From Patescibacteria group bacterium (lineage in GTDB: Bacteria > Patescibacteriota > Patescibacteriia > JACQRZ01): DNA of 49,323 nucleotides. The notes under the pieces were generated by a model. It saw nothing but the letters and a program-made list of their open reading frames with translations. It ran no database searches and was not told the origin of the DNA. Positions 1,888 through 32,801 of this stretch are shown here, one piece after another. Both the position numbers and the translations under genes were made by a program. The stretch covers positions 1 through 49,323 of the forward strand of contig JBBTRP010000038.1 in assembly GCA_038065125.1 (NCBI GenBank). The letters are read 5' to 3'. Each line of letters begins with the position of its first letter. The stretch's first letter is position 1.

Positions 1888-2095
1888 TCGGGGGGTAGAG
1901 GAATTCCGCTCTCCCGACGTCCACTGGACGTCAGTCGTTTGTACTGGGTGTACTCGGAGTGCCGCCGGCACTCCTCGCTCGCTCCTTGGATGCCTGTGGT
2001 CTTCGTCCTCGGCATCCGTTCGCTCACACCCGTTCGATTCCTCTCTCATTACATGAGAACAGAAAACCCTACTTCGTAGGGTCCTCTGTTCTCAT
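1884..2095 (-). repeat. tRNA-trailer structured element, copy A (behind tRNA-Trp)
   Basis: There is a 21-nt direct repeat of the tRNA 3' end (1884-1904 = 2092-2112). 2032-2044 is the exact reverse complement of the T-arm at 2105-2117. The core at 1946-1987 is nearly identical to 7238-7281 and 16358-16402. It also has a palindrome at 1916-1932 and a long hairpin at 2053-2095. Confidence 0.75.
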
Positions 2096-6056: not shown

Positions 6057-6665
6057 TCACTTCGTGGCCAGTTGGTCGACGACGACCTCAAGGGTCGTGC
6101 GCTTCACGCCGAATTGCTTTGCGGCTGTGCGCGTCTTCATCCAGAGGTCGATTCGACCATTCCCATAGCGTGCGTTCATGCGATCTTGGACGATAAATAC
6201 GCGGTCGCCATACAACTCAGGAAGTCTCACGCGGGTGCCGAATGCCAAATAATTTGCCGCGATCACGTTTTCGCGGTTATGAGTACACACGTTAAATCCG
6301 TTTGCGGTGGTGCAGGGGTCGCTGTCTGTTTGATCAGGGGTGCTGGAATAGGCGGTTGCAACGACCGAGTGGGGGCCTCTCTGGGAGTACGTTTGACGTG
6401 GGCGAGCAACAAATTGTGTTGTGGGGCCTGTAATATGTCGTTTGACCGCGGCAGTCCCCTCGCGTTCGCGCTCAGAGAGTCGGTCGTATGAAACGTCAAT
6501 ATCGCTCTCGCCTTCAATGAGCTCTAAGATTTCGGGAGGGACAAAAGGGATCGAAAAACTCTCGTCTGCAAAAACTCCTGTGGGATTTCCCAGGAGTAGG
6601 CTCGCTGTCATAATAAGTGCCCCAACAAAATGGGGGAGTGAATGGTTTGGTTCTAAAGGGTCCAC
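6057..6665 (-). CDS. Secreted 3D-domain (MltA/RlpA-like barrel) protein
   Basis: N-terminal hydrophobic segment. The C-terminal ATAYSS..DQTDSDPCTTANG..VIAANYLAFGTRVRLPELYGDRVFIVQDRMNARY..IDLWM resembles 3D-domain proteins. Confidence 0.6.
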   Translation of the reverse strand: MDPLEPNHSLPHFVGALIMTASLLLGNPTGVFADESFSIPFVPPEILELIEGESDIDVSYDRLSEREREGTAAVKRHITGPTTQFVARPRQTYSQRGPHSVVATAYSSTPDQTDSDPCTTANGFNVCTHNRENVIAANYLAFGTRVRLPELYGDRVFIVQDRMNARYGNGRIDLWMKTRTAAKQFGVKRTTLEVVVDQLATK

Positions 6666-7161: not shown

Positions 7162-7180
7162 ACGGTTGAGATTATTTTGG

Positions 7181-7421
7181 AGCGGGTAGCGGGAATTCCG
7201 TAGTCGCATCAGCCACTGGCTGATACTCCTGTGTCCTGGGTGTACTCGGAGCGCCACCGGCACTCCTCGCTCGCTCCTTTGACTCCTGCGGCATTCTGCC
7301 TCGGAGTCAGTTCGTCAGGCAGAGCCTGATCCGGCTTCGCCGGACTTACACCCGTCCGATTCCCGAATACTATCTTTTTGAACAAAACTACCCATCCTTT
7401 CGGATGGACACTTTTGTTCAA
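7181..7421 (-). repeat. tRNA-trailer structured element, copy B (behind tRNA-Gly)
   Basis: 16-nt direct repeat 7181-7196 = 7422-7437. 7354-7365 is the exact reverse complement of the T-arm at 7431-7442. It has the core at 7238-7281, a palindrome at 7208-7224 and a long hairpin at 7377-7421. Confidence 0.75.
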
Positions 7422-7493
7422 AGCGGGTAGCGGGAATCGGACCCGCCTCTGCTGCTTGGAAGGCAGCCATAATAACCACTATACGATACCCGC
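7422..7493 (-). tRNA. trnG: tRNA-Gly (UCC), CCA not encoded
   Basis: Acceptor GCGGGTA/TACCCGC, anticodon stem GCTGC/GCAGC with loop CTTCCAA, T-arm GCGGG-TCCGATT-CCCGC. Confidence 0.9.
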
Positions 7494-13667: not shown

Positions 13668-15264
13668 ACTTGCCACGAACAAAGGTATACCCCGCGTAGG
13701 ATACCTCTGGCTGGTCGTTAAAATCCTTCCAGTAGACGCGCTTACCGGACGGGAGATCGCGGGGAAGAAGATCGGCCCTTTCAATCTCTTCGTAGTCAAT
13801 GGTGTTTGTAACGATCATGAGTGACTGAACCGATTGAGGAACGTGGATCGTGTCCCCGTATTGGAATGCGAGCTTCGAGTGGTTCTGAATTCGAAAGTAT
13901 TTTTTTTCTTTCCAAAAAAGTTCCACAACATCAACGCCCGGCAGATAGTAGCTCATATGTCGCATATACTCTTTTGTATTCTTGATCCACGGGGCGCCGG
14001 GCTTTTCCCGATACCGGAATCCTCGTTCGGTAATGACTACGAGGGAGCGCGGATCGACACCTTGCGCGTGGCGCACCAGGCCACCAATATCTGAATCGCT
14101 CTTGGCAAGCTCTGTGCGCGTAAAAAATCCATACCACCAGCTAACGCGCTGAAACGAGCGCGTGAGAGTGGGGGAAGCGCCAAGGAAGAAAGCAGCATGG
14201 AAGATAATAAGCGCAACGAGAAGAACGTTTCGATGCGGAATATGAACGATCGCGATCCCGCCCAATAACACAAGGGCCCCGAGAATAGTCATCACATATC
14301 CTGCTTGGCCCAAATGAAGGAAGCCGTACACGAATAGAGAAGGAGCGATCCAGAGCGCAAGGATCCACAGATGATGCGAGGGAGTTGTACGCATGCGGGA
14401 GTGGAGGAGAAAAAGAGGTGCGAACGCGATGAAAATAAAAAATGATGATCCTGCGGCAATCAAAATCTTGGCGAGGAGTTTGAGCTGTGAGAGTGTCGCG
14501 CCCCACGGCGCTCCGGCAAAAATCGAGGTTGTCTGCGCAGACCGCAAAAGCAAGAGATCGGTGATGTGTGTATACGGCCCCCATCCGCCCGCCAATGACA
14601 AAAGCGGCACAAACCAGATTCCAAATGCACTCAGCCCCAGAAGCGCGCCAATCACACTGTCTTTTCGCGAGCAGAGTCGGCGGGTGATCGCCACACCGAT
14701 GGCAAAAATAAACAATGGTGCAAAGAGCACGAGGAGGCTCTGCCGAATCCCGCCCGAGAGAAAATACAAGAATACAAACGAGCCGAGATATTTTTTGTCT
14801 GATGTCTCGTAGAGACGCACGGCGCACAGTGCGAACGCGAGCGAGAAGAGGAGATCAAAAATATAGGCGGTCGCCACCTCGCCATAAAACCACACTGCGG
14901 GAAGAGAGAGGAGGGCGAGCGCGAACAAAAAGGAAAAAGCGGTGTCGCGAAAGAACGCTTTTGCAAGACGGAAAAACAAAACTCCGCACACCGCTGCTGC
15001 GAGGATACTTATCGCAACAAACCCGGCGTTGGCATCCGCACTCAGTGCCGCAGCGATCTTTCCCAGTGCAATATAGAGGATATATCCAGGCGGGTGGGGC
15101 TGGTGCGTGGCAAGGTTAAATTTCTCAAGCGCCAAGGCGAACTGCACCGAGTCCCAGGTATACAAGTAGTGCGTCTGGAAGGGGATCCGCGTCGCGAAGA
15201 CAAACAGAATCAGAAAAATCTCGTGCCAGTTCGCTCGTGCGCTGCGGAGTATATTTGAGATCAT
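13666..15264 (-). CDS. Polytopic GT-C type glycosyltransferase (GT39/ArnT/PMT_2-like)
   Basis: At least 10 hydrophobic helices. The N-terminal loop RIPFQTHYLYTWDSVQFALALE..HQPHPPGY is typical of the PMT_2/DUF2723 group. The ATG at 15264 makes an ATGA overlap with the upstream stop. Confidence 0.7.
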   Translation of the reverse strand: MISNILRSARANWHEIFLILFVFATRIPFQTHYLYTWDSVQFALALEKFNLATHQPHPPGYILYIALGKIAAALSADANAGFVAISILAAAVCGVLFFRLAKAFFRDTAFSFLFALALLSLPAVWFYGEVATAYIFDLLFSLAFALCAVRLYETSDKKYLGSFVFLYFLSGGIRQSLLVLFAPLFIFAIGVAITRRLCSRKDSVIGALLGLSAFGIWFVPLLSLAGGWGPYTHITDLLLLRSAQTTSIFAGAPWGATLSQLKLLAKILIAAGSSFFIFIAFAPLFLLHSRMRTTPSHHLWILALWIAPSLFVYGFLHLGQAGYVMTILGALVLLGGIAIVHIPHRNVLLVALIIFHAAFFLGASPTLTRSFQRVSWWYGFFTRTELAKSDSDIGGLVRHAQGVDPRSLVVITERGFRYREKPGAPWIKNTKEYMRHMSYYLPGVDVVELFWKEKKYFRIQNHSKLAFQYGDTIHVPQSVQSLMIVTNTIDYEEIERADLLPRDLPSGKRVYWKDFNDQPEVSYAGYTFVRGK

Positions 15265-16295
15265 GGGAACAGATACGCTCGCTTCTCGATTGCCGCGGTG
15301 CATACCGGCCGATCGCCCTTCTTCAGGCTGGGACATAGGGCGCGCGCTTCTTTGAGTGACCCGTGATGATCGATGAAAAGACCGATCAACCCATCAAGGC
15401 ACGGCTCCCTGCCTGCACTGGGGGCGTTTTTACAAACTGCTACGGCGCGAGTCGGCTCAGTGATAAAATGCTTTACCGCCTCCCCGCCAATACCGGCAAA
15501 ACACGGCTCCTGTACTCCCTTGTCAAGCGTCGCACACCAGCCAAGAGCCTTCTTATAGTTATTTCTTTCTAATGAGAGGGTATATTTCGCGGCGTACAAC
15601 ACGCACGCGCTTCGAAACTTCTCGTCAATTTCAAAACAGGGGTAGGCCGGCTCTCCAGGCCGCAGATACGCTGTTGGATGAACAAGTGTGTCGCTATTAA
15701 AATTCTCCATAAACGCGCCGTCAGCACAGGTGACCTGCTCAAACTCGCTGGGGTACTCGTTGCAGAGGCCAAGCGACTGAATCAGATTGTTTCCGGTGTA
15801 GTACATAGTGCCGTGCCCGACGCCATGGTAGCAGTTCCACTGGCCGAACGATCGCTCTTCGTACTTCTCGCATGCGGTGCGGATGCTTTCGATAATATCC
15901 GATGAGTTTTCAAACGACGCCTCGATCACTCCGTGAGTATACCCGGAAATGCAGAGCGGATCACGAAATGCGATTGCTGCAGAAAAGTCTTCATATTTTT
16001 TGAGTGCCTCGCGACCAAGAGCATGTACAAAACGATGGCACTCCGCCGCGACGTTCCGATCTTTCTTCATGAGCTTCGAAAGGCGGATGAGCGCTGTTCG
16101 CGGATTTTTTTTGTAAAGCAATGTGATCAGTTCTTTTTCTGTTTTCGCATACGCGGCCTCTGAGAGATGGGGAGTCTGATGGTTAGTCGCCACATCGCCA
16201 AATGCAGCCGGTACAACAGGTCCGCCCGCGCCGGTAATAAGGAGAAAAAAAATTAATCCAAATATTCTCTTTACTTGTCGCATAGAATGTCTCAT
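15261..16295 (-). CDS. Secreted Cys-rich hypothetical protein
   Basis: Signal-like RIFGLIFFLLITGAGG and many spaced Cys and His residues (CHRFVHALG, WNCYHGVGHG). Start is at 16295 or 16283; the track start at 16337 lies inside trailer element C. Confidence 0.55.
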   Translation of the reverse strand: MRHSMRQVKRIFGLIFFLLITGAGGPVVPAAFGDVATNHQTPHLSEAAYAKTEKELITLLYKKNPRTALIRLSKLMKKDRNVAAECHRFVHALGREALKKYEDFSAAIAFRDPLCISGYTHGVIEASFENSSDIIESIRTACEKYEERSFGQWNCYHGVGHGTMYYTGNNLIQSLGLCNEYPSEFEQVTCADGAFMENFNSDTLVHPTAYLRPGEPAYPCFEIDEKFRSACVLYAAKYTLSLERNNYKKALGWCATLDKGVQEPCFAGIGGEAVKHFITEPTRAVAVCKNAPSAGREPCLDGLIGLFIDHHGSLKEARALCPSLKKGDRPVCTAAIEKRAYLFP

Positions 16296-16299
16296 CTGG

Positions 16300-16510
16300 T
16301 CGGGCTGCTCCCGAATTCCGCTCTCAGGACCGTCCACTGGACGTCAGGCGTTTGCCCGGGGTGTACTCGGAAGTGCCACTGGCACTCCTCGCTCGCTCCT
16401 TTGGCTCCTACGGCTATTCGCCTCGTGCCAGGTCGCTCACACCCGTTCGATTCCCTTTCAAATCCATTAGGGACATGATACTCCAACTTCGTTGGAATCT
16501 CATGTCCCTA
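16300..16510 (-). repeat. tRNA-trailer structured element, copy C (behind tRNA-Pro)
   Basis: 10-nt direct repeat TCGGGCTGCT (16300-16309 = 16511-16520). 16445-16455 is the exact reverse complement of the T-arm at 16521-16531. It has the core at 16358-16402, a palindrome at 16331-16343 and a long hairpin at 16468-16510. Confidence 0.75.
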
Positions 16511-16581
16511 TCGGGCTGCTGGGAATCGAACCCAGTCTACTTGGTCCCAAACCAAGCGTACTACCGGTATACGACAGCCCG
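16511..16581 (-). tRNA. trnP: tRNA-Pro (UGG), CCA not encoded
   Basis: C1-G72 acceptor CGGGCTG/CAGCCCG, anticodon stem CTTGG/CCAAG with loop TTTGGGA, T-arm CTGGG-TTCGATT-CCCAG. Confidence 0.9.
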
Positions 16582-18233: not shown

Positions 18234-18357
18234 TAATCGTCATAGCGTGGCATGACGAGGTCGGTATCTCGGGATGGGACAATCAATTTTTCGCTTCGGC
18301 GAGTAGTCATGGTGGTAGTGTATCTTTCCTATCCTAAATGATTCACGCGTCTCGGAC

Positions 18358-18579
18358 AAGAAAAAACCTCCTTCGGGGGAGGTTTTTTCAATGCCGAGGG
18401 CGAGGATCGGTCTCGCCTCTCGTCGCCTCCCGGCTCCTCGGGCTGACCACCGCCTCGCGGTCCGGCTCGCCACTCTGCGTCGCCGGACATCGCTCCGGCG
18501 TTCGATCCCCGACGCGATCCAAACTGTTGGATCGCTCCCTGGCATAAGAAAAAACCTCCTTCGGGGGAGGTTTTTTCAA
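18358..18579 (-). repeat. tRNA-Phe trailer: 52-nt direct repeat (terminator hairpin plus tRNA 3' end) flanking a 136-nt GC-rich structured insert
   Basis: 18358-18409 and 18546-18597 are identical. The copy continues as a near-complete T-arm (GGCGAGGATCGGTCTCGCC). The insert contains GGATCGAAC, which is complementary to the host T-loop, plus several hairpins. Confidence 0.65.
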
Positions 18580-18889
18580 TGCCGAGGGCGAGGATCGAAC
18601 TCGCGACGCAAGGATTTTCCTTCTGCTTTCTTACGTTTCCGTAAGTGTTGGACTATATCATCACCCTTCTTTCTAGAGAAAGAAGGGGTCGAGCGCTTAT
18701 GCAGGAATATTGTTGAGGCTCACCTGCTAGTCTCTACGCCTTCCAGAAAAACAACGCTCTTTCTGGCTTGGCTCGGAGTTATCACAATTTGACTGGAGAC
18801 TTCTCCGAATTCACCCGATTTTTAATCACACTTTACAGTGTGATGGACCGAAAATTCAGTCCTTCGCTCTACCACTGAGCTACCTCGGC
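18580..18889 (-). tRNA. trnF: tRNA-Phe (GAA) interrupted by a group I intron after U33
   Basis: 5' exon 18889->18858 is GCCGAGGTAGCTCAGTGGTAGAGCGAAGGACT. 3' exon 18619->18580 is GAAAATCCTTGCGTCGCGAGTTCGATCCTCGCCCTCGGCA. Spliced, they give a canonical 72-nt cloverleaf. Confidence 0.85.
18620..18857 (-). ncRNA. Group I intron (IC3-like) in the tRNA-Phe anticodon loop
   Basis: P1 is formed by exon GGACU pairing with the intron guide GGUCC, with a U-G pair at the 5' splice site. The intron ends in G. P6 is CCAGAAA/UUUCUGG and P7 is GACUA/UAGUC. The strings CCGAGCCAAGCC and GGAAGGCGUAGAGACUAGC resemble cyanobacterial tRNA-Leu intron cores as I recall them. Confidence 0.8.
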
Positions 18890-18955
18890 AAAGTGAAAAA
18901 TAGTATACCTTATCGTTATAATCTTTCAAGTATAATAAATCGAACTCGTGGTATA

Positions 18956-19660
18956 ATGAACTTGTACTATAATGATATGAACGAGATAAAACACCAAGCA
19001 ATCCTATTGAGAAAAGAAGGGCTTTCATACAATACTATATCGAGGCGACTGCATGTTGCTAAAAGCACTCTTTCAGGATGGTTGAGCACGGTGCCTTTTT
19101 CGGAGAATATCAAAAGAGAGAATAACGAAAAAAACAAAAAAATACAAGCAAAAAATCTAATTGCATTTAACAAAAATCGATCGAGATTGATCAGGTTGGG
19201 ATGGATAAAAACTCAAAAAGAAAGCTCTCATGAAATCGGAGCTCTTACGGAAAGAGAGCTCTTTCTAATTGGAGCTTCGCTATATTGGGCGGAAGGATAC
19301 AAAAAATCAAACTGGAATATGGTCTTTTGTAACTCTGATCCGAAAATGATTAAACTCATGATGCATTATTTCCTGCACACATGTTCCGTGCCAAGAAAAA
19401 AAATAAAGATCCAAGTCCAACACTATTCCAATCAAGACGAACAGAGAGTCCTACAGTACTGGTCTCGTGTTTGCCGTCTTCCACTCAGCCAGTTCAATAA
19501 GCCAATTTGTATGGTCAGTAAAAGCAGCAAACTAAAACGCGGTTCGACGCTTCCTTTTGGAACGATTCGGATTCGAATTAACGACGTTACTCTTCTCAAT
19601 AGAATGAAGGGATGGATTGAAGGAATTGCCGATTCAAATAGATACAGACGACAGAAGTGA
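18956..19660 (+). CDS. HTH plus LAGLIDADG-like homing-endonuclease-type protein in an AT-rich island
   Basis: LSYNTISRRLHVAKSTLSGWL looks like an HTH. LIGASLYWAEGYK followed by VFCNSDPKMIKLMMHYF resembles single-motif LAGLIDADG_3 domains. The start was moved to the first ATG clear of the tRNA-Phe 5' exon. Confidence 0.5.
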   Translation: MNLYYNDMNEIKHQAILLRKEGLSYNTISRRLHVAKSTLSGWLSTVPFSENIKRENNEKNKKIQAKNLIAFNKNRSRLIRLGWIKTQKESSHEIGALTERELFLIGASLYWAEGYKKSNWNMVFCNSDPKMIKLMMHYFLHTCSVPRKKIKIQVQHYSNQDEQRVLQYWSRVCRLPLSQFNKPICMVSKSSKLKRGSTLPFGTIRIRINDVTLLNRMKGWIEGIADSNRYRRQK

Positions 19661-19697: not shown

Positions 19698-19774
19698 TGG
19701 TGGGCATGGGAGGACTCGAACCTCCGACCTCTTCATTATCAGTGAAGTGCTCTAACCAACTGAGCTACATGCCC
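19698..19774 (-). tRNA. trnI: tRNA-Ile (GAU) with encoded CCA
   Basis: GGGCATGTAGCTCAGTTGGTTAGAGC...CTGATAA...GGAGGTTCGAGTCCTCCCATGCCCACCA. Confidence 0.9.
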
Positions 19775-23237: not shown

Positions 23238-24745
<1,508 letters not shown>

Positions 24746-32558: not shown

Positions 32559-32630
32559 TGGACCTAGCGAGAATCGCCAGGCAGAGCCTGGTCCGCCTTT
32601 GGCGGAAACTCCTAATTACAAAACTTTCAA
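32559..32630 (-). repeat. Short tRNA-Ala trailer ending in a degenerate duplicate of the tRNA 3' end
   Basis: On the minus strand, CGATTCtcgcTAGGTCCA (32576->32559) compares with the tRNA's CGATTCccggTAGGTCCA. Two small hairpins lie between them, and a separate terminator hairpin (32517-32561) follows. Confidence 0.45.
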
Positions 32631-32701
32631 TGGACCTACCGGGAATCGAACCCGGACCTCAGCAATGCGAATGCTGCGTAATACCGTTTTACTATAGGCC
32701 C
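32631..32701 (-). tRNA. trnA: tRNA-Ala (CGC), CCA not encoded
   Basis: Acceptor stem with the G3-U70 identity pair, anticodon stem CAGCA/TGCTG with loop TTCGCAT, T-arm CCGGG-TTCGATT-CCCGG. Confidence 0.85.
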
Positions 32702-32801
32702 ACCTACAAACAAACGGCGGTGCACCCCAGTATACTAAAGGGGGGCTTCCCGCGCAACCTCCCTTGAAAGCAGCGACTGACCCTGCTAAGATTCGCCGCA
32801 T

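Follow-up and report, generated by a model that had tools for sequence, protein, structure and literature searches.

Integrase insertion into tRNA genes reportedly leaves a flanking repeat of the tRNA 3' part, as Williams is said to have described in 2002. Casposons, which rely on Cas1-type integrases, insert at the 3' ends of tRNA genes with a target duplication that is unusually long (~14 to 15 bp). In IS110 elements, the bridge RNA is a compact structured RNA at the element end whose segments covary with the flanking target DNA, which is how its guides were recognised (PMC11208160). Here we describe short inserts behind tRNA genes on a complete contig of 49,323 nucleotides (nt), hereafter the window, from a groundwater member of the Patescibacteria (candidate phyla radiation, CPR), with emphasis on the insert behind tRNA-Pro, which we call copy C. 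As with integrative elements, a direct repeat of the tRNA 3' part lies at both ends of the insert and an intact tRNA at one of them; no integrase was found in or beside the element, and the insert holds no open reading frame (ORF) conserved between copies. We consider it somewhat probable that these inserts form a family of small, protein-less, RNA-structured insertion elements lying 3' of tRNA genes in certain Patescibacteria, with copy C as a partly decayed member.

The window inserts described here lie on the minus strand, and the order of their parts is given on the tRNA-sense strand. The occupied target of copy C is a complete tRNA-Pro(UGG) without an encoded CCA (16511-16581; Rfam tRNA, 59.2 bits), one of seven tRNAs, all on the minus strand, that ARAGORN calls in the window. 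Directly after its discriminator A73 stands a nested 43-nt hairpin, H1 (16468-16510), which has a C-GAA-G tip, much as the sequence-only reading of this DNA had described, has no U-tract and abuts the tRNA 3' end. Further along lies an antisense T-arm segment, hereafter the guide (GGGAAUCGAAC, 16445-16455), complementary to tRNA-Pro positions 53-63; the 11-nt inverted T-arm copy noted previously (GTTCGATTCCC) is indeed the exact reverse complement of 16521-16531. The structured core (16317-16444) comprises helix P2 (16439-16444 with 16359-16364), hairpin P3, hairpin P4 (16369-16388) and hairpin P5 (16328-16345), the last spanning the reported palindrome CGTCCACTGGACG (16331-16343, a CCAGUGG-centred hairpin), and it closes with GAGAGCGGA (16317-16325). 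The GAATTC junction is also found, at 16313-16318, and the displaced tRNA-Pro 3' part from A58 to A73 (17 nt, 16300-16316) is made up of ATTC, GGGAG where the tRNA has CCAG, and CAGCCCGA, followed directly by CCA (16297-16299), likewise present in copy B.

Several of the changes in copy C set it apart from the other copies in the window. The 10-nt direct repeat TCGGGCTGCT recurs exactly as claimed, at 16300-16309 and in the last ten tRNA bases (16511-16520), and the displaced fragment reads as ATTC, changed bases and AGCAGCCCGA, with the exact repeat confined to 16300-16309. The replaced T-stem bases (CCAG to GGGAG on the tRNA strand) do create the local hairpin that had been pointed out (UCGGG-AGCAG-CCCGA), and they break the closing stem of the element. 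The single extra base in the core hairpin relative to copies A and B (GGCACTTCC versus GGCACTCC) is real, and it is joined by one nucleotide gained in the last hairpin (GGACGGUC) and one lost from the second hairpin. Copy C thus totals three 1-nt helix indels together with the shortest guide match, and its covariance model score is the lowest in the window (148 bits). We read this copy as a member of the tRNA-linked element family that has partly decayed; its low score and broken closing stem are more in keeping with decay than with adaptation.

The two further copies in the window have the same module order, as previously proposed. Copy A (1884-2095) stands behind tRNA-Trp (2096-2168), with H1 at 2053-2095, the guide at 2032-2045, a core that extends to 1905, and a displaced fragment at 1884-1904 that is a 21-nt exact repeat and is followed by a terminator (1855-1884). 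Copy B (7181-7421) stands behind tRNA-Gly (7422-7493), with H1 at 7377-7422, the guide CGGGAAUCGGAC at 7354-7365, a 30-nt double-hairpin insert at 7315-7344, and a displaced fragment at 7181-7196 that is followed by CCA (7178-7180). A pattern scan of JGI metagenomes added a copy at tRNA-Glu (L010, a 109-kb contig of 41% G+C), and three more were found on a related contig of 46% G+C (L015; GCA_030647285.1, JAUSJL010000018.1), a single one at tRNA-Cys and two in tandem that carry 3' fragments of tRNA-Gly. The tandem array occupies positions 1-315 of L015, at the contig end, where at least two units (tRNA-Gly 58-73, H1, guide and core) are 100% identical across 87 aligned nt; the array may be longer. 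The general order is therefore a complete tRNA without an encoded CCA; H1, a long hairpin of free sequence without a U-tract that is missing in L015-Cys; a linker of 8 to 15 nt; an 11- to 13-nt guide (NNGGAAUCGAAC); a core of ~130 nt ending in GAGAGCGGA (GACUGCGUA in L015-Gly); and, joined to it at A58, a second tRNA 3' part. Exact repeat lengths are 21 nt in A, 16 in B, 10 + 4 in C, 18 in L010 and at least 32 in L015-Gly.

A covariance model built from five copies (R1) gives 185 bits for copy A, 162 bits for B and 148 bits for C (E of ~1e-43), with seven matches overall (89 to 185 bits, the lowest interrupted by the contig end). Across ~240 kb of window and related contigs the model has no match beyond these seven, and with filters off nothing in the remainder of the window exceeds 11 bits. 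Among ~25 tRNAs at unoccupied sites in related contigs, none has an inverted T-arm copy of at least 9 nt, and none a 3'-end repeat of at least 10 nt, within 700 nt downstream. The shared organisation is far beyond chance. Copies A, B and C are 75 to 80% similar to each other, 82 to 83% to L010 and 57 to 72% to the L015 copies, and the two tRNA-Gly copies, which belong to different genomes, do not pair off as nearest relatives. Element G+C content is 57 to 62%, against 41%, 46% and 52.5% in the three hosts, and is far above that of two of them.

With respect to its wider distribution, an exact 19-mer of the core had four matches in one genome per GTDB species, all of them chance matches in coding DNA without element-like flanks, and the only tRNA near them (in L003) is 1.4 kb distant. 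A gapped pattern had six matches in the JGI metagenomes, of which L010 is the genuine one. Three patterns had no match in IMG/VR, and in blastn no GenBank phage or PLSDB plasmid matched the element. Rfam gave no match at gathering thresholds and only noise at E ≤ 10 (e.g., tmRNA_permuted, 13 bits), in the same scan that detected a group I intron at 18629-18867. Literature searches, sequence strings included, retrieved no description, and the family is apparently undescribed. In contigs from the same aquifer and groundwater samples we observe further variants with other guide flanks (e.g., CAGCGGAAUCGAAC and CUAUGGGGAAUCGAAC), which align to window positions 1900-2045 and 16370-16460 and indicate more copies in the genome or community than the window holds.

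The copies share a five-helix core, with a consensus fold of one closing stem, three hairpins (P3, P4 and P5) and one long-range helix, P2, in which GGGUGU pairs with ACACCC. A tandem-G.A helix (GAGCGA/GAGCGA) is possible in addition, and L015-Cys has Watson-Crick GCUGCA/UGCAGC in its place. The core measures ~150 nt, or ~210 nt with flanks. In a seven-copy alignment, which was itself fitted to the model, both bases have changed in 19 of the 46 pairs, and 94.6% of cells show pairing; slid partners reach 30 to 47% paired cells and at most six pairs with double changes, and none of 500 shuffles attains the covariation score. The compensatory changes are thus above both kinds of control, as expected of a conserved structured RNA. 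Since G.U outnumbers A.C in the helices (15 versus 3), the tRNA-sense strand is the folding strand, and the structural selection on this strand points to an RNA. A coding function of the element was excluded by the 1-nt indels between copies and the pattern of compensatory substitutions.

In each copy the guide fits the T-arm of the adjacent tRNA (positions 53-64/65), over 13 nt for tRNA-Trp (GUUCGAUUCCUCU), 12 for tRNA-Gly (GUCCGAUUCCCG), 12 for tRNA-Glu, 11 for tRNA-Pro and 11 for tRNA-Cys. The corresponding pairs are GAGGAAUCGAAC with GUUCGAUUCCUC of tRNA-Trp in copy A, CGGGAAUCGGAC with GUCCGAUUCCCG of tRNA-Gly in copy B, and GGGGAAUCGAAC with tRNA-Glu in L010. The copy B guide fits the unusual UCCGAUU T-loop of its tRNA-Gly, and since this loop is also present in the element-free contigs L016 and L021 it is ancestral, which means that the guide adapted to the tRNA. 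In intact copies the guide letters for positions 58-65 have a second possible partner, the beginning of the displaced fragment, and this pairing gives a closing stem of 6 to 8 pairs plus CG/CG over a 2-nt bulge; the CGAAC part (CGGAC in B, with G opposite C55) has a partner only in the real T-arm. When the tRNA is included, both RNAalifold and RNAfold choose the T-arm pairing of the guide. The element's terminal letters are CGGA (CGUA in the two tandem L015 tRNA-Gly units), with the junction at T-loop A58.

Evidence for insertion comes from related contigs (L014 to L022), which were reached through homologue searches as PolA relatives and have 57 to 71% PolA identity. Synteny is kept around polA-folD-tRNA-Trp-TPR gene and around tRNA-Gly ... 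tRNA-Cys-polA, and in 5 to 8 related contigs per site the element is missing; such an empty site consists of the tRNA followed by an intrinsic terminator (hairpin plus T-run). The tRNA-Trp site is empty in L014 to L022, that of tRNA-Gly in L016, L019, L020 and L021, and that of tRNA-Pro in L016 and L021; at tRNA-Cys, L015 is occupied, whereas the window and five relatives have an empty site. The element is absent from ~120 kb of syntenic relatives, and the empty orthologous sites argue that it arrived by insertion. The H1 of copy A resembles the tRNA-Trp terminator of L014, the closest relative (P ~ 0.0015), as does the terminator after its displaced fragment (P ~ 0.006), and for the H1 of copy B the resemblance is to the terminator after tRNA-Gly in L016 (P ~ 0.001); for the H1 of copy C no match was found among the relatives' terminators. 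In A, B, C and L010, H1 has no U-tract, unlike the empty sites, and is followed by the 150-nt conserved core, an arrangement that differs from a plain tRNA trailer with an intrinsic terminator. The L015-Gly repeat extends 16 nt into H1. H1 would therefore most simply be the first terminator copy minus its U-tract, and the duplicated piece would run from the T-loop to what was originally the end of the tRNA transcription unit. Genomic flank follows the displaced fragments of A, L010 and L015-Gly, whereas those of B and C are followed by CCA, a triplet missing from the working tRNA-Gly and tRNA-Pro genes. This CCA may be left from one that was once encoded, or mature tRNA may have been the source of the fragments. 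Because A, B and C are closer to one another than to the L015 copies and the two tRNA-Gly copies are not nearest relatives, the element appears to have moved between tRNAs within a lineage, picking up the 3' part of each, and is probably mobile now or was so recently. In the relatives, the region after tRNA-Trp is itself a variable spot (L015 9373-18900, L018 9075-11837 and L019 9326-9788), where toxin-antitoxin and defence-type genes are abundant (HicA, AbiEii, Fic and AAA_14/DUF4143).

The same evidence bears on two other explanations. The copies could be scars of larger tyrosine-integrase elements (prophages, integrative plasmids or islands) that were deleted to attL, a short arm and attR. 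A tRNA 3' repeat flanking an insert is the classic integrase signature, repeat lengths vary from 10 to 66 nt, and the layout equals a Campbell product. Independent deletions would nevertheless not be expected to retain one 150-nt core with the same ends in seven copies at five tRNAs, the compensatory changes and one-strand G.U indicate that the core is selected as RNA, no copy contains gene remnants, and phage, plasmid and viral collections hold no match; we regard a scar origin as distinctly unlikely. Still less credence goes to a stable host noncoding RNA, an ancient regulator of tRNA maturation or decoy lost in most relatives, in which repeat and guide form a switch. The conserved structure, the two mutually exclusive guide pairings that are predicted and the likely co-transcription with the tRNA suit such a role, but presence is scattered, with different tRNAs used per genome and the element absent from the ~120 kb of syntenic relatives; a tandem array exists; the repeat includes flank or terminator and acceptor strand, for which a decoy would have no need; and copies cluster by genome, not by tRNA.

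We also considered a T-loop intron or trans-splicing ribozyme, in which the guide would align the end of a 5' exon (GUUCG57) with the start of a 3' exon (A58 UUCC...) and the core would connect the body of the tRNA with the distal fragment, serving either as a silent intron or as a repair module for a damaged tRNA 3' part. The guide is contiguous over the junction, like P1 and P10 of group I introns, the junction phosphate lies beside the conserved 2-nt bulge in the closing stem, and a conserved structured core separates guide and junction. Moreover, when tRNA-Pro and element are folded together, the minimum-energy structure (z = −8.8) has the distal fragment paired to the 5' acceptor strand of the tRNA and the guide paired to the T-arm, and the distal fragments of A, B and L010 are perfectly conserved despite H1 divergence. 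What makes this explanation very improbable is that the proximal tRNA is already complete and needs no splicing, that neither an Rfam group I match nor a terminal G nor a U at the putative 5' splice site is present, and that the distal "exon" is mutated or truncated in C and L015-Cys. The H1 hairpins, moreover, derive from local terminators; because H1 resembles the terminator of the local tRNA, reverse splicing of a unit bringing along a 5' tRNA part was rejected.

Inserts with other cores are found at two further tRNAs of the window. Behind tRNA-Phe (18580-18889), an insert with a different core and the same plan (18392-18579) is bounded by a 66-nt repeat (92%), whose displaced copy (18351-18416) comprises T-arm, 3' end and the whole terminator. 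It consists of a terminator (18549-18576) that retains its U-tract, a hairpin (18514-18535), a guide (GGGGAUCGAAC, 18500-18510) that pairs with GUUCGAUCCUC with one G.U, a G+C-rich core of ~85 nt, and the displaced T-arm and 3' end (18392-18416), after which stands the second terminator copy (18361-18388). The anticodon loop of this tRNA-Phe(GAA) is split by the group I intron (18629-18867; Rfam, 76.5 bits), which is why ARAGORN did not call it, and an adjoining 255-amino-acid ORF on the plus strand (18893-19660) has only a weak helix-turn-helix match. Behind tRNA-Ala (32630-32702), repeat analysis revealed a mini-insert (32559-32629) made of a 24-nt spacer, a double hairpin (32577-32606) and an imperfect tRNA 3' repeat from C56 (32559-32576), followed by a terminator. 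The 30-nt double hairpin (UCCGSC-RAA-GSCGGA plus YCAGGC-UCU-GCCUGR) thus occurs twice in the window, here and within copy B (7315-7344), with compensatory changes between the two copies, and CGA follows both. At least five of the eight tRNAs in 49 kb bear an insert bounded by a tRNA 3' repeat.

A further explanation is passive spread, in which replication template switching or short-homology recombination would copy the element, as a tRNA-linked RNA gene, to further tRNA loci without dedicated machinery and the guide would serve the RNA's own function. The proposed microhomology is the T-tracts after terminators plus ATTCC of the T-loop; the downstream junction always falls in the most conserved T-loop letters (CGGA/ATTCC in the main family, with CGAT directly after the junction at tRNA-Phe and tRNA-Ala), the upstream junction lies just past a terminator-like hairpin, CGA after the double hairpin recurs in copy B and at tRNA-Ala, and no mobility gene was found. 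Passive spread would, however, need a rare event to recur, both within one small genome and across genomes of 41 to 52% G+C, and it leaves unexplained both the guide match to the tRNA-Gly T-loop outside the repeat and the constant orientation with an exact A58 junction in six copies at five tRNAs. We judge it unlikely.

Copy C lies directly upstream of a gene for a Cys-rich predicted secreted protein (15261-16295), and the sequence-only reading had suggested that the element could double as the leader or ribosome-binding context of that gene. This idea holds in its positional sense, since the element is directly upstream with no terminator in between; a dedicated role finds no support, as homologues occur without the element. 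The database gene call (358 amino acids, from GTG 16337) starts inside the element, and an alignment of homologues favours instead ATG 16283 or ATG 16295, the two starts that had been named, which are both present. The displaced fragment ends 4 nt before ATG 16295 and 16 nt before ATG 16283. Between tRNA-Pro and the ORF we found no terminator-like site and one weak promoter-like match (9/12, in the variable hairpin), from which read-through from the tRNA promoter into the Cys-rich gene would be plausible, and with it a co-transcription of element and gene.

A comparison with homologous loci, in line with the check proposed earlier, did not bear out a leader function: homologues (≤44% identity) on two other contigs (L011 and L012) lie 8 to 13 nt behind other protein genes, with neither tRNA-Pro nor element upstream, so that the association with homologous genes elsewhere that marks a cis-regulatory leader was not seen there. 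Terminators follow copy A, the L010 copy and the tRNA-Phe and tRNA-Ala inserts, and other copies precede unrelated genes; the constant partner of the family is the tRNA, not the downstream gene. Copy B and L015-Cys also adjoin ORF starts, which could favour recruitment of copy C as a functional 5' leader, as could the lack of a terminator and the changed bases, which yield GGGAG 12 nt before ATG 16295 (a long spacing) along with the local hairpin. Homologous genes have no such leader, though, the close linkage of tRNA-Cys to polA does not depend on the element (L018 shows it at an empty site), most window genes are without a Shine-Dalgarno motif and such sites are scarce in the genome, the likely start at 16283 is ~16 to 17 nt from the fragment, and copy C is the most decayed copy. 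Recruitment as a leader is accordingly the explanation to which we give least weight. The place of copy C before the gene looks like a side effect, not a function: with its terminator missing and its displaced fragment mutated, the element would have become the upstream region of the Cys-rich gene. One practical consequence is that gene callers are misled, since the Cys-rich protein and the L015 PolA are both annotated with N-terminal extensions starting inside an element; the latter is recorded as 958 amino acids from position 6500 (element region, 6500-6640), against ~912 in relatives.

The contig also encodes dnaA, dnaN, polA and a 16S rRNA gene, and its PolA has at most 71% identity to any recorded protein (~55% to Uhrbacteria). 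The 16S rRNA gene (23239-24745, minus strand) and tRNA-Ile (19698-19774, minus strand) are ~3.4 kb apart with protein ORFs between them, and no 23S rRNA gene follows the 16S in the window, so the rRNA genes are unlinked here. A recognisable Shine-Dalgarno motif was present in only a few of the start regions of 22 window genes, and several of the longest window ORFs have TTG or GTG starts.

Taken as a whole, the element is best read as a non-autonomous, tRNA-targeting, co-transcribed RNA element. We propose that it would enter at the T-loop, regenerating an intact tRNA and pushing the old 3' part downstream, with an outcome formally equal to Campbell-type integration of a unit made of tRNA 58-73, trailer or terminator, linker, guide and core. 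Guide pairing across the 57/58 junction would specify or stabilise the target. Since H1 after the tRNA lost its U-tract, the element could be transcribed by read-through from the tRNA promoter, and its guide might then switch between the T-arm of the tRNA and the displaced fragment (closing stem). Repeated integration or unequal exchange would give the tandem array. The 3' part of a new tRNA might be captured by recombination at 57/58, whether site-specific or RNA-guided, by a staggered cut that leaves a long duplication, by capture at the RNA level and subsequent reverse transcription, or by template switching on ATTCC microhomology.

Several observations weigh against the proposal of a mobile element. 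Scans of 38 ORFs in the window and L010 with Pfam, NCBIfam and PHROGs, and the 14 to 19 kb around other copies, revealed no recombinase, transposase, reverse transcriptase, TnpB or integrase, either there or elsewhere on the 49-kb contig. No autonomous version was seen, and mobility rests on comparative evidence. The family counts only seven copies in three genomes, exact-pattern scans having added just L010, and metagenome contigs of this organism yielded no excised or empty allele; these contigs break in repeats. Routine maintenance of the closing stem could account for most of the guide covariation (58-65), and the proposal leaves unexplained how a new tRNA 3' part is acquired at each retargeting. 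In an aquifer metatranscriptome, low-depth contigs cover copy B and a further unplaced copy (guide CAGCGGAAUCGAAC), at the depth of neighbouring genes, so that DNA carry-over is possible and neither strong expression nor processing is shown.

A stronger version, which we hold only tentatively and think rather less probable than its negation, is that the element is a self-contained RNA-guided mobile unit, whose transcript finds a T-arm, in the tRNA gene or pre-tRNA, by its 11- to 13-nt guide, joins at 57/58 and captures the 3' end of the target. The helper would be a trans-acting recombinase, a reverse transcriptase or ribozyme chemistry; in its boldest form, the element would be able to exchange a damaged tRNA 3' part through trans-splicing. 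If true, it would represent a protein-less, retargetable "guide plus cargo" element capable of harmless insertion in essential genes. CPR bacteria have tiny genomes whose tRNA genes are single-copy, which makes it noteworthy that no fewer than five of the eight tRNAs in this 49-kb contig are occupied. At 150 nt, without a gene but with a conserved fold and an antisense segment matched to its target, the element would be smaller than any tRNA-targeting insertion element described so far, and it hints at target choice through base pairing of another form than in CRISPR, omega-RNA or bridge-RNA systems. Should the pairing direct insertion, the element would offer a compact natural template for programmable insertion beside essential genes without their inactivation. 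The family also breaks assemblies, as one contig ends inside the tandem array.

Compared with known systems, the family resembles IS110/IS1111 bridge RNAs (seekRNAs; 150 to 250 nt) in being a compact RNA whose short segments covary with the target, one of them complementary to one target strand and another identical to it. Unlike in IS110/IS1111, there is no DEDD recombinase gene and no sequence or Rfam relation. IS110 bridge RNAs have two loops, for target and donor, with guides split around a 2-nt core, whereas the consensus fold here has no two guide loops and the element uses one contiguous 11- to 13-nt guide together with a long direct repeat, which IS110 elements do not make. Likeness to a group I intron lies in the guide that is contiguous over the junction, the core between guide and 3' junction, and the location in tRNA genes; unlike group I introns, the site is the T-loop and 3' end instead of the anticodon loop, the tRNA is uninterrupted, and the guide is ~80 nt from the 5' junction. 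There was no Intron_gpI match to the element at E ≤ 10, though 18629-18867 scored 76.5 bits, and no terminal G; the junction letters are G57/A58 and A/A58, with no G.U at the junction.

A ~150-nt scaffold at the end of the element, with ~16 nt of flanking target after it, is a formal likeness to the scaffold plus guide of the omega (re)RNAs of TnpB/IscB in IS200/IS605 elements. Unlike IS605 elements, which make no repeat, the family has one, and it comes with no TnpB/IscB gene and no HEARO or IS605-orfB Rfam match; a TnpB-type self-targeting guide was rejected because no such gene is present and the resident tRNA gene would be cut. Unlike casposons, the family has repeats of 10 to 66 nt instead of a fixed length, neither terminal inverted repeats nor a casposase, and bacterial (CPR) hosts. 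Nor do the ends (H1 or linker ... GAGAGCGGA) form the inverted repeats of a miniature inverted-repeat transposable element, and the repeat length of 10 to 66 nt departs from the short, fixed-length target duplication of such elements.

The closest likeness is to tRNA integrative elements, namely prophages, islands and integrative and conjugative elements, and to their att-flanked derivatives without integrase, such as cis-mobilisable elements and tycheposon remnants. Like these, the family inserts at the 3' side of tRNA genes, regenerates the tRNA, leaves the displaced 3' copy as a direct repeat from the T-loop, can form tandem arrays and has the Campbell layout. Unlike these, it measures 150 to 210 nt, 10 to 100 times less, carries no genes, and has as its conserved part a folded, covarying RNA with an antisense copy of the target T-arm, the same core being used at five or more tRNAs, each with its tRNA-specific repeat. 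That targeting is RNA-guided in a manner not yet described is a real possibility, though we think it less likely than not. We would file the family among tRNA-targeting insertion elements, as an apparently undescribed variant that seems to work most like the integrative elements of tRNA genes.

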